A stretch of 64,000 bases of DNA from Escherichia phage P1: the sequence record MH445380.1; one strand, 5' to 3'. How positions within the stretch are numbered: position 1 is the stretch's first letter; each line of letters starts with the position of its first letter. Under the pieces are notes generated by a model, which saw only the letters and a list, made by a program, of their open reading frames with translations, was not told the DNA's origin and made no database searches. A program made the translations under genes and the position numbers. This document shows, piece by piece, positions 55,887 to 58,918 of the stretch.

Positions 55887-56542
55887 CTACTCTAACGACA
55901 GCATACTTACAGCAATTGGTATTTTTTGCAGGCGAGGCTACTTGTCATCCTGACGCAAACTATTTATTGGAATTTGAGAGGTTAGCGTCACCCGGTATCG
56001 TTCTGGAACTGGCCCAACAGGTGCTGGCCTTGAGACAAAAAGAGCAACATGAAAGTAATACGTGTAGATTGAATTTTGAGCAGTGGCTGGAACAGCAACG
56101 CGGGAAAATCGATGTGGACTGTGGTTGTGTGTCCACTGAAACATTCATGCACTGGCTGCGGGTAGCTTACGAGGCTGGCAACTATCCGGATATTCCGGAT
56201 AGTTCGGTGCCAGCGCCAGGAAAGGGCGTCACCGGTGAACGTATCCGCATTAAGCCGCATGTTTATCGCGAACTGGTTAACCGTCTCCACGATACAGCGA
56301 TCAAGTGTGCTGGCACTCAGCAATTACGAGAAAGAATTAGCCGTGTTTTGGGCGACGTTATTACGCCATATCATCATAAACAAGCCGAGAAAAGCGGTCT
56401 GGAAAGGTGTCATCTTGAGGCAGCATTAAACATTAAGCCGGGGCATACGCTAGGCATTATTGATGCACTGTTGGTTCATAAGATGGCCAGGGCTTTATTG
56501 TCGTTGGTGGACGCTGGTGATACAAGCGAGGGTGAAGTATGA
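55868..56542 (+). CDS. Hypothetical protein
   Basis: 224-aa ORF. Confidence 0.5.
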   Translation: MAQKEMTTLTTAYLQQLVFFAGEATCHPDANYLLEFERLASPGIVLELAQQVLALRQKEQHESNTCRLNFEQWLEQQRGKIDVDCGCVSTETFMHWLRVAYEAGNYPDIPDSSVPAPGKGVTGERIRIKPHVYRELVNRLHDTAIKCAGTQQLRERISRVLGDVITPYHHKQAEKSGLERCHLEAALNIKPGHTLGIIDALLVHKMARALLSLVDAGDTSEGEV

Positions 56543-56901
56543 GAGTTGCAGATCACATCAAACACCTTGAAAGAATTATCGAAAACGGTGAACTCTTAAG
56601 AGATCAGATGAGACGCACGGCAGAAGCCAGGGAGGCGATAATCCGCAGTCAGGCTGGTAAATTAAAGCAATTGTCAGAGATTAACACGCTATACAAGAAC
56701 AGACGTAACCGGGCGGTGATGCGGCTTCAGAAAGCACGTAATGAAATTAAATTGGTGGAGGCAAAACTGAAAAAACAGATCCAGCGTTACGATCAGCAAG
56801 ATGCTTTTTATGCCGCCATCAAGGCGGCTGCTAATGAAATAGGCATCTGGAAGTTGCTGGTGGAGAAAGCAAAGACGAAGTTAAATGCCAACGAAAGCTG
56901 A
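56539..56901 (+). CDS. Hypothetical coiled-coil protein
   Basis: 120-aa ORF, last gene of the plus-strand accessory block. Confidence 0.5.
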   Translation: MRVADHIKHLERIIENGELLRDQMRRTAEAREAIIRSQAGKLKQLSEINTLYKNRRNRAVMRLQKARNEIKLVEAKLKKQIQRYDQQDAFYAAIKAAANEIGIWKLLVEKAKTKLNANES

Positions 56902-56976
56902 ACTACAGGTGCCCACCAGCACATACAGAAAATGATTGTTTCCACATCAAGGAGATTTTAATGTTTCACTGAAACA

Positions 56977-57114
56977 TTAAGTAAGCCAGTGCATAATTCC
57001 ATTTTTTACTGACCTTAAAAGCAAAATCAAAACGATGATGAGGATAATAGCCAGAATCTGGCTAATAATAGGCGCATCTAAAAATGCACTCAGGAACTGA
57101 AAAAAAGCGTTCAT
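56977..57114 (-). CDS. Small hydrophobic peptide (45 aa), candidate membrane toxin
   Basis: Hand translation MNAFFQFLSAFLDAPIISQILAIILIIVLILLLRSVKNGIMHWLT; AGGA Shine-Dalgarno 9 nt upstream; its stop lies inside an inverted repeat (56958-56980). Below the ORF-track threshold. Confidence 0.3.
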   Translation of the reverse strand: MNAFFQFLSAFLDAPIISQILAIILIIVLILLLRSVKNGIMHWLT

Positions 57115-57976
57115 TCAGGTGGTTCCTTGTCAAATGTAAAGGTGCACTTGCTCACGTTGACGTAGAAACCCAACCCCTATATAGTTGGATTCGGTGAATG
57201 AAAGTCGTTAACGTGAGCTTACGGCACATGTTTTCGGAAAAACATCAGGGAACGGCTAATTCCTTGATGCGGGTGGGGTCTGTAATGCAGACCCTATCTA
57301 TTAACGTCATGATTGCATCTCAAATTTTCTCCTTATCTTCAATTAATCTACATTCATTTCATCTGTTAGCCACCACAATATGTAGAAAATGGCCCTCTTG
57401 CAAGTGCATAACTTTGTGGATAACTCAGGAAGGAAAAAGTGGCTTTCGCGCACCTTCGGTCAGACAAGGTGTCCGGGAAAGTCAACGCAAAGAAAAAAAT
57501 TGTTAAAAATAACGTTTGTTGGAATTGTATATTTTTATCCCCTTCAATGGTTAGCATTCTATTAACATCTTTTTTTAGAGACAGAAAAACATATCGTAAC
57601 AACATATATACAGTGTTAAGCGGCGAGTATTATCCTGCGGTGGGAATTCTGGGCGCTGTTAGATTCGACTTTCTCAGCAGGATTACATCGTCAACTTGCG
57701 ACGTTGCCGTATGACTTTCGTGTAATAGGTGACAATGATGCGGCTAGTGAGTTACTTGTGAAGTTTTTCGGAAAAGGTTTTGTGGCCTCGGATCTTGATG
57801 AGCTACAGCAACATGAAGTGTCTAATTTGATTTTTAGCCATAGCCAATAAGCCTCCCTCCTCCATCAAGGCCACAATTTGTGACCTTAAACAATTTGTTT
57901 TCTGCTTTTTCTTATTTGAGAAAATAACGTTGTTGACAGCTAATAGGCTCGTTGTTGTTATACATGCCTGTATAGA

Positions 57977-58333
57977 TTATGACCGTAAATTATTAGCGGA
58001 TTTTAAGCCATATTCACCGTTGTAGAAATTACTCATGTTCCATTCATTAGGAAGTTCTTTTCTGTCCAATGTATAGTGGCGCACGATATAACGATCTTCA
58101 TCTTCTTCGATGGACAGGCGGACATAGCCAATGTGAATCACCGATACGGGCGGTGTTCGTATTGCATAGATGTCGCGGAGATATACCGGCAGCTCGACAA
58201 ATGCATCAGGTGCATCTGTGATGCTCGTTTTTTCACAGTATTCATATAACGCATCGTTGATATCGTTAAGAGATTCATGATCGTATATTTCCAGGTAATT
58301 ACCGCGATCGCGATGGTACTCGATTTTAGCCAT
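57977..58333 (-). CDS. Hypothetical protein (second gene of an unassigned two-gene operon)
   Basis: 118-aa ORF starting immediately after the stop of the upstream gene; no recognisable motif. Confidence 0.55.
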   Translation of the reverse strand: MAKIEYHRDRGNYLEIYDHESLNDINDALYEYCEKTSITDAPDAFVELPVYLRDIYAIRTPPVSVIHIGYVRLSIEEDEDRYIVRHYTLDRKELPNEWNMSNFYNGEYGLKSANNLRS

Positions 58334-58918
58334 TCAAAATCCCCTGTTATCGTTTTGCATTTCTCTAATCCGGTTCAGAACTACTTCATGCTGGACTTGG
58401 ATAGCGGCTTTTTCGTTTTCAAGCCGGGCAATAGACATCTCTAATTCTTTGCTGTACCAGGCGAGCTGGGCCAGGTTCATCCGGTTGTGGTCGAGAGTTG
58501 GAGACACTTCGACGCGATCCCTTTCTTCCTGCTTTAATGAGAAGAGATTTATCTCATCCCTTGAGGAAAATTCAGCAACAATTTCTTGTTGATGATCCGG
58601 TCGCTGCGGCATCCTCGCCAGTATAAATGGCGGTTCTTTTGAAAACATGAATGTCGGTTCAGACCGTGTTTTTACCCAGCTTGCCTGCTGTCTTTCGGCA
58701 AGTTCACAGGCTTCATCATAGTTATCTGCCAAACAAAGCACGGATGGACGGTCCCACGCCCCACCATTCAGACAATAAACTACAATTTTCCCGTCAGGTT
58801 GTGTAACCCCATATGGATGGTCCCACCAGGCGTCCAGCTGAGCTTTAGAGCGTTTCTCGTTAGGAGTGCAGTCAAAATTTTTGGGCAATACAGGATCGAG
58901 AGGAATGCGGGCAGGCAT
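58334..58918 (-). CDS. Hypothetical protein (first gene of an unassigned two-gene operon)
   Basis: 194-aa ORF transcribed divergently from humD; C-terminal third is coiled-coil-like; no recognisable catalytic motif. Confidence 0.55.
   Translation of the reverse strand: MPARIPLDPVLPKNFDCTPNEKRSKAQLDAWWDHPYGVTQPDGKIVVYCLNGGAWDRPSVLCLADNYDEACELAERQQASWVKTRSEPTFMFSKEPPFILARMPQRPDHQQEIVAEFSSRDEINLFSLKQEERDRVEVSPTLDHNRMNLAQLAWYSKELEMSIARLENEKAAIQVQHEVVLNRIREMQNDNRGF

Follow-up and report, generated by a model that had tools for sequence, protein, structure and literature searches.

The 64,000-nucleotide stretch of Escherichia phage P1 DNA analysed here (MH445380.1), called the window throughout, carries on its minus strand an open reading frame (ORF) of 45 codons, ORF45, which lies in the gap that separates a pmgV homologue (56539-56901, plus strand) from the genes after it. 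In the curated P1 reference this gap holds just three small plus-strand ORFs, upfM, upfN and upfO, with predicted promoters, and the minus-strand frame is annotated neither there nor in phage P7. The NCBI pipeline PGAP does call it in many plasmids (WP_000123562.1, 45 amino acids, and WP_162883679.1, a 49-amino-acid variant). Comparison of the available sequences indicates that the reference annotations lack a conserved module made up of an nrdA-like promoter, a leader under constraint, the ORF for the hydrophobic peptide and a candidate antisense promoter. P1-type phage records match the stretch 56400-57900 at 100% identity and phage P7 matches it at 99.7%, and hundreds of P1-type plasmids from E. 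coli, Salmonella and Shigella match it too; the window is a P7-type P1 phage-plasmid. Phage P7 has IS903 inserted about 300 bp past the nrdA-like promoter region, and the window, otherwise 99.7% identical, lacks it.

In searches of plasmids and phages the 520-bp region turned up in 235 plasmid records and 12 phage records, which sort into three identity tiers, or clades, of about 100%, 96% and 78%. The module is present in roughly half of the related plasmid records (235 of 447), and phage D6 is without it. Across the clades the sequence can be aligned from near 56960 to near 57440, and in the 78% clade the left flank is unrelated, with a restriction-modification gene there in one plasmid. The module is thus a self-contained unit of about 480 bp (about 56950-57440), which is single-copy within the window and is retained also where the gene hot is absent. 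No further clade was found in IMG/VR, JGI metagenomes or GTDB genomes, or in searches seeded from the 78% clade, and blastn and tblastn searches of plasmids and phages from both deep clades for divergent relatives usable in covariation analysis returned the same three clades only. The features of the module are as follows.

56948-56955, minus: tail UCUCCUUG, complementary to the 5' AAGGAGA; a possible fold-back (pairing probability 0.65-1.0 in the P7 and P1 types)
56958-56980, minus: 3' stem-loop containing the ORF45 stop codon (arms 56958-56968 and 56970-56980)
56977-57114, minus: ORF45, encoding a 45-residue hydrophobic, predicted single-pass peptide with a basic C-terminal tail, MNAFFQFLSAFLDAPIISQILAIILIIVLILLLRSVKNGIMHWLT
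57124-57127, minus: Shine-Dalgarno (SD) sequence of ORF45, AGGA; the AGG and the ATG are invariant
57150-57218, minus: long-range stem (57206-57218 with 57150-57162) around an inner hairpin (57166-57192), -22.6 to -29.8 kcal/mol
57157-57185, plus: sigma-70 promoter TTGACG-17-TATAGT, 10/12 matches to consensus; P1's 'PupfN', annotated as predicted in the P1 reference
57192-57305, plus: predicted antisense RNA of about 110 nucleotides (nt), both ends predicted, complementary to the leader core, with two strong stem-loops
57238-57269, minus: hairpin 2 (HP2), CAUCAAGGAA-UUAGCCG-UUCCCUGAUG (57243-57269), followed by UUUUU; a possible attenuator at which transcription would terminate
57245-57310, minus: putative 21-codon upstream ORF (uORF21), whose ATG overlaps the stop of the mini-ORF (ATGA); it spans hairpins 1 and 2 and stops in the 3' arm of HP2
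57276-57294, minus: hairpin 1 (HP1), GGGUCUG-CAUUA-CAGACCC, with a compensatory U-A to C-G change in the 78% clade
57307-57334, minus: invariant SD AAGGAG (57329-57334), then the mini-ORF ATG CAA TCA TGA (57307-57318), which reads ATG TAA in the 78% clade
57375-57403, minus: promoter core, -35 TTGCAA (57398-57403), 17-nt spacer and -10 TATTGT (57375-57380), from a position-by-position alignment with nrdAB
57385-57525, minus: homology to the control region upstream of E. coli nrdAB, oriented as nrdA; the upstream limit of about 57525 was judged by eye
57403-57411, minus: DnaA box 2, TTATGCACT, abutting the -35, recognised by sequence and by alignment with nrdAB
57415-57423, minus: DnaA box 1, TTATCCACA, a consensus 9-mer, invariant in all clades while its flanks diverge

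The reading frame and its coding status

An earlier note on this DNA, made from the letters alone, had described a hydrophobic minus-strand ORF of 45 codons preceded by an AGGA ribosome-binding site, and both are found, the AGGA lying 9 nt before the ATG. The peptide has a grand average of hydropathy (GRAVY) of 1.56, residues 14-33 score 3.0, and the hydrophobic core and basic tail are also retained in the 78% clade. Type I toxins are small (less than about 60 amino acids), hydrophobic proteins with a transmembrane helix, and ORF45 encodes a peptide of this kind. The same note had made conservation of the frame in related elements a check on its proposal; all three clades retain ORF45 with its SD and ATG, and every full-length variant has an open frame. 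Around the SD and ATG, 5 substitutions and 1 indel fall within 19 nt, yet the AGG and the ATG are unchanged. ORF45 is also the only one of the six frames that is open in both deep clades despite 33 substitutions. Replacements within residues 4-36 are conservative (I/V, L/F, R/K, D/N), with one L to W, and the ratio of non-synonymous to synonymous substitution rates (dN/dS) is 0.41, a value that fails to separate the ORF45 frame from the other frames. Taken together, these comparisons give modest evidence for translation of ORF45, which we consider likely.

The peptide itself is, as far as database searches go, an orphan. Only its own family was returned by a word-indexed search of 5.8 billion proteins, and the same was true of an exhaustive HMMER search of 1.84 billion representatives and of tblastn against all plasmids; NCBIfam and PHROGs, searched with ORF45 only, gave weak, non-significant matches, and scanning the adjacent ORFs with PADLOC and Pfam gave nothing. 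Rare alleles have C-termini altered after residues 31-37, always with the hydrophobic core kept, and include an apparent A-run frameshift, a 1-nt insertion and an apparent fusion or insertion. These altered ends could mean either that the tail is dispensable or that the peptide has been inactivated.

On the opposite strand, no ORF is conserved across the clades. The upfM/upfN/upfO region corresponds to 57084-57197 and 57198-57506 (both plus strand) in the window, and small ORFs are curated there in the P1 and P7 references. We rejected upfM and upfN as conserved genes, as the 78% clade has no upfM ATG and carries an indel that disrupts the upfN frame, and the predicted promoter P1upfM likewise, its -10 (56992-56997) being destroyed in that clade. 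At least two of the three small plus-strand ORFs that the reference annotation lists in place of the module are thus not conserved, and the small plus-strand ORFs curated here are probably not genes.

Promoters, leader and transcript ends

The first 76 nt of the module, read along the minus strand, have a counterpart of 97-99% identity at the ypaB/nrdA upstream site of every one of the 5426 complete E. coli genomes; the matching chromosomal site sits just upstream of nrdA, and the orientation is the same as that of nrdA. When the module and nrdAB were aligned position by position, the two DnaA 9-mers, the abutting TTGCAA -35 and the 17-nt spacer were common to both, and the -10 hexamer was TATCTT in E. 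coli nrdAB, TATTGT in the window and TACTGT in the 78% clade. The DnaA boxes and the -35 are invariant in all clades, and the sequence upstream of the boxes has diverged in the 78% clade. An 'nrdA-like promoter' with a dnaA box was already annotated on the same strand, at the equivalent position, in GenBank M95666 (1993). Read by eye, the hexamers match the sigma-70 consensus at 8/12 positions, and the sense transcript would start near 57367; its direction follows from homology to a characterised promoter, beyond a mere consensus scan. In the nrd promoter region DnaA binds the 9-mers, and a proposed model has DnaA-ATP repressing nrdAB (PMC2500167). The functional NrdR boxes 1 and 2 lie downstream of the nrdAB promoter (PMC12176259), and no such pair was found downstream of the module promoter, where no 16-mer exceeded 10/16 against the box consensus. 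Homology to the nrdA 5' untranslated region inside the leader was also considered and rejected, the local alignments not being significant (P 0.04-0.07, uncorrected). The nrdA upstream homology reaches about 57525 in the P7-type window, about 100 nt further upstream, and only about 57453 in the P1 reference, so that the P7 type has retained a longer part of the host control sequence beyond the boxes. We found no paper on the peptide, its accession or P1's nrdA-like promoter.

At the other end of the module, the earlier note's 11-bp inverted repeat over the stop codon was confirmed: its arms are perfect, separated by 1 nt, with the TAA (56977-56979) inside one arm. Perfect palindromes of this size gave 13 matches in the window (about 10 distinct sites, since nested registers of one palindrome are counted separately) versus none in any of 10 Markov resamples. 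Nine further perfect palindromes, all short-looped and with arms of 11 bp or more, lie at 15422, 15801, 23455, 26821, 31849, 39106, 47605, 49162 and 56180. In the commonest P1-type allele the palindrome is imperfect, with a 1-nt deletion in one arm; on this ground, and for want of a U-tail, it was rejected as a terminator or a protein site. Two changes, U-A to C-G and G-C to G-U, leave the 78% clade with 8 bp of the stem, and there the stem folds solely as minus-strand RNA (-5.6 vs -2.0 kcal/mol). A 3' hairpin kept specifically as minus-strand RNA implies that the sense transcript runs through ORF45. A hok-like fold-back between the 5' and 3' ends was also considered: it is predicted by RNAalifold, and pairing survives the changes seen in the 78% clade, yet it is absent from that clade's own fold, and the candidate was rejected; its controls were uninformative because the structure was derived from the same alignment.

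One alternative is that the module acts as DNA, the DnaA boxes and palindromes being protein sites (for example for DnaA titration or control of hot), or that it is a functionless captured remnant of the host. The clear homology to the host nrd region, the invariance of the DnaA boxes and the perfect stop-codon palindrome of the window are what such an element would show. However, the host homology stops just before the -10 and the conserved core of about 190 nt that follows has no host counterpart, the module persists where hot is absent, and the pattern of change in the palindrome, an arm deleted in the commonest allele and compensatory changes in the 78% clade, is like that of an RNA and unlike that of a dimer-binding site. 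We therefore consider a DNA-level function, or none, very improbable.

The core of the leader is the most constrained part of the module. All divergences given here compare the P1 reference with the 78% clade. Synonymous sites differ by 37% in hot and 50% in humD, and the non-synonymous sites of hot and humD by 4-6%; the first 50 nt or so of the predicted transcript differ by about 50%, with an identity of no more than 47-49%, and ORF45 by 40% at synonymous and 20% at non-synonymous sites. The 188-nt leader core (57150-57337) differs by 9%. It runs from the invariant AAGGAG to the 3' arm of the long-range stem, and the 10-nt linker right after it is only 20-30% identical between the clades. 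This fine-scale alternation of conserved and variable stretches argues for selection rather than a single recombination breakpoint, and by this comparison the leader core is under strong purifying selection.

Within the core, the mini-ORF has three codons, reduced to a bare start-stop in the 78% clade, and uORF21 is open at equal length in the three clades; because 6/21 of its residues differ between clades, the uORF21 peptide itself is not conserved. HP1 is predicted to fold at -11.8 to -13.9 kcal/mol when read from the minus strand and at -16 to -17.5 kcal/mol when read from the plus strand. The stem of HP2 is invariant save its closing pair, which is changed in the 78% clade, and 3/7 loop bases differ between clades; where the window has UUUUU after the stem, the P1 type has UUGUU and the 78% clade UUUUUAUA. 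The SD, the mini-ORF and uORF21, together with HP2 and the U-rich run, could form a translation-dependent attenuator. Further downstream, the long-range inverted repeat that the earlier note had placed at about 57160-57240 is present, about 10-20 nt to the left: GCTCACGTTGACG and CGTTAACGTGAGC lie at 57150-57162 and 57206-57218, 43 nt apart and 12/13 complementary. With 14 matches in the window, inverted repeats this good are not rare, so the weight of this one comes from its conservation and not from its existence. Over the 69-nt domain the 78% clade differs from the window at three positions, a one-sided C-to-U change that keeps pairing as G-U and two unpaired bases. As for leader structure gating translation, the leader is constrained and predicted to be structured, but the long-range repeat encloses the opposite-strand promoter and does not sequester the SD. 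The predicted full sense transcript has a fold z-score of -4.1.

Such a leader could also mean that the product is RNA only, that is, a sense small RNA of about 130 nt ending at HP2 and the U-run, a plus-strand small RNA of about 110 nt, or both, acting on other targets, with ORF45 an untranslated open frame in a T-rich tail. It would account for a leader core far more constrained than ORF45 (9% vs 24% divergence between clades), for the finding that both strands fold far better than shuffled sequences, and for coding statistics that are each non-significant alone. It does not account for the invariant AGG and ATG amid variable surroundings, for a frame open in every full-length variant, or for the conserved minus-strand hairpin past ORF45, and the leader matches no Rfam family. 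We regard an RNA-only product as unlikely.

On the plus strand, none of the 16 sequence variants alters either hexamer of the promoter inside the leader; the 3' arm of the long-range stem contains the -35 of this promoter, and the inner hairpin carries its -10 in the loop. RNA predicted to start near 57192 on this strand has a fold z-score of -5.1 over 119 nt, and with G-U pairs in place of A-C mismatches, HP1 and HP2 gain stability as plus-strand RNA. The stretch from one predicted start to the other (57192-57367) largely coincides with the conserved block 57150-57337. In the P7-type window no plus-strand gene follows this promoter. What stands in place of P1's hot-lxr segment at 57977-58918 is two minus-strand ORFs of 118 and 194 amino acids, P7 upf93.6 and upf94.2, the 194-residue one called a 'DNA-binding protein' by PGAP; neither matched Pfam or PADLOC, and the LexA site common with humD lies past them in P7.

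A further alternative makes ORF45 a small accessory protein of the inner membrane that does no harm (a lysogenic 'moron') and is expressed from the nrdA-like promoter through a translated, attenuating leader, with the plus-strand promoter serving downstream plus-strand genes such as hot rather than an antitoxin. Much of the module fits it: ORF45 is conserved with its SD; an invariant SD and start codon open the conserved core; the uORF frame and stop are kept and its peptide is not; a U-rich run follows HP2; and in P1 and the 78% clade the plus-strand promoter has hot downstream of it. The attenuator arrangement fits either this reading or a toxin. However, the plus-strand promoter is unchanged in the P7-type window though no plus-strand gene follows it, the U-run is broken in the P1 type, and a simple attenuator leaves the constraint on the 69-nt domain downstream of HP2 unexplained. 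CRISPR interference (CRISPRi) and deletion surveys found the region dispensable for lytic growth, though the CRISPRi survey left out upfM itself (PMC10695390); dispensability speaks for a harmless protein, and it is compatible with all readings. We consider the harmless-protein explanation doubtful, if still a serious competitor.

A type I toxin-antitoxin-like reading of the module

The reading we favour, with a probability of about 0.4, is that the module is a type I toxin-antitoxin-like locus, which would be a new family. The earlier note's proposal of a type I toxin was borne out in part. In its favour are the conserved ORF, SD and ATG, the nrdA-like promoter facing the ORF, and the constrained leader: a conserved, structured toxin mRNA leader is typical of type I systems, and here the leader diverges by 9% vs 37-50% at neutral sites and folds with a z-score of -4.1. 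As for the antisense RNA that such systems use, there is an invariant opposite-strand promoter matching 10/12 consensus positions and a strongly folding plus-strand RNA, the transcript being predicted and without a clear terminator.

Several results weigh against this reading. The substitution pattern backs coding only weakly: in simulations, equal numbers of substitutions left the frame open with P = 0.42 and gave replacements as conservative as those observed with P = 0.11, for a joint P of about 0.05. These statistics are weak because NUN codons are robust to mutation. No toxin family was recognised, as ORF45 had no Pfam match at E up to 10 and none in PADLOC, and Rfam had no match in 56500-58000, though it detects sok, C4 RNA and tRNAs in other parts of the window. 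The predicted folds do not consistently sequester the SD of ORF45. Consensus (alifold) energies are similar on both strands, so that structure leaves the strand undecided. A canonical intrinsic terminator was found for neither the sense nor the antisense RNA, the latter lacking a canonical U-tail, and the stop-codon palindrome is not a typical terminator. The plus-strand promoter could, in P1 and the 78% clade, be serving hot downstream. Covariation is thin as well: the search across P1-like genomes that the earlier note had proposed gave one truly compensatory pair, in HP1, in the consensus structure. Its statistical power is low because there are just three clades, and shuffle and slide controls were uninformative. 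Elsewhere in the window, Rfam marks the C4 antisense RNA with its a1/b1 targets (immI region) and three tRNA genes (13898-14103, 34403-34553 and 36361-36433).

If the module is a type I system, it might work as follows. The weak nrdAB-derived promoter with its two DnaA boxes would transcribe the minus strand from about 57367, giving an mRNA of about 420 nt that opens with a leader of about 250 nt, the core of which would comprise the SD, the mini-ORF, uORF21, HP1, HP2 and the long-range stem domain; this leader structure is partly supported. The stronger, invariant promoter inside the leader would fire in the opposite direction and produce the structured RNA of about 110 nt, fully complementary to the leader core. 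This antisense RNA, or transcription collision, may keep ORF45 untranslated, by analogy with the action of Sok on the mok leader of hok. On failure of this control, the 45-residue peptide would enter the inner membrane and arrest or kill the cell.

The type of the sense promoter suggests that expression of ORF45 is probably tied to DnaA and replication status, and such a link would fit the neighbouring hot, humD and LexA-controlled genes. A more specific version of the toxin reading holds that the P1 family captured the host nrdAB/DnaA control to drive an orphan type I membrane toxin that reports replication-initiation or dNTP (deoxynucleoside triphosphate) status, not SOS, with a fully complementary antisense RNA arising from inside the leader. 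We put this version forward as speculation that is unlikely to hold in full; if right, it would be a counterpart of tisB/dinQ within the P1 replication and damage-tolerance cluster (hot, humD, lxr).

If the favoured reading is true, P1 has a module for maintenance or stress that its reference annotation lacks, and both a toxin family and an RNA family would be new additions to a known kind of system. ORF45 would then also be the first type I toxin known to us with control of the DnaA/nrd type. Should ORF45 prove harmless, the non-coding core of 190 nt, constrained like protein-changing sites, is still a functional RNA element worth mapping.

Comparison with known systems

The Ldr/Rdl systems of E. 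coli, which belong to the Fst/Ldr superfamily, have an antisense RNA encoded opposite the 5' leader, not the ORF, and a small leader ORF. A short stretch, 'AP[IV]I..ILA', is common to ORF45 and Ldr, with 7/15 identities in a BLASTP alignment of 15 residues only. Membership in Ldr/Fst, which this motif resemblance had suggested, was rejected, since Pfam PF13940 and PF13955 miss ORF45 and a local Ldr hidden Markov model (HMM) scored it at 5.4 bits or less, which lies within the background of that model as calibrated on all 1435 six-frame ORFs of the window. As controls, Pfam recognised LdrD and LdrA (86-94 bits), with Fst remaining sub-threshold at 22.8 bits vs the 36-bit cut-off. Unlike Ldr/Rdl, the module has no long direct repeat, and it shares no nucleotide similarity with them.

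In tisB/istR-1 and dinQ/agrB, a membrane toxin is expressed from a promoter responsive to the state of DNA replication or to DNA damage, and its long leader needs remodelling. If our reading is right, the module would resemble them in its membrane toxin, its status-responsive promoter and its long leader. The control would differ: those systems are LexA-controlled, with divergent and only partly complementary small RNAs, whereas here the promoter is of the DnaA-box/nrdAB type and the predicted antisense RNA is fully complementary; they have no sequence similarity to the module. With the E. coli nrdAB promoter, by contrast, the module shares near-identical DnaA boxes, -35, most of the spacer and about 100 nt further upstream, all in the same orientation, though its downstream content is unrelated to ribonucleotide reductase and the NrdR boxes are absent.

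A canonical hok/mok/sok locus is itself present in the window, in agreement with the earlier note's mention of hok: Rfam matches sok at 17560-17734 (114.9 bits), a 51-residue Hok ORF lies at 17729-17884, and a 68-residue mok-like ORF at 17671-17877 overlaps the Hok ORF. The module differs from it in that ORF45 has no Pfam Hok/Gef match (E up to 10) and its RNA is not sok by Rfam, in that its uORF stops more than 100 nt before ORF45 without overlap, in its nrdAB-derived sense promoter, and in that the fold-back is not predicted in the 78% clade. In hok/sok, a strong antitoxin promoter is paired with a weak toxin promoter. The module resembles hok/sok of plasmid R1 and its relatives in having a hydrophobic peptide of about 50 residues at the end of an mRNA of about 400 nt, a long structured leader with an upstream frame, a near-consensus opposite-strand promoter inside that leader facing a poorer-matching sense promoter (10/12 vs 8/12 here), a plasmid-type replicon as host element, and a possible 5'-3' fold-back predicted in two of three clades. 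Taken together, these likenesses suggest that the anatomy of the module comes closest to hok/sok-type logic.

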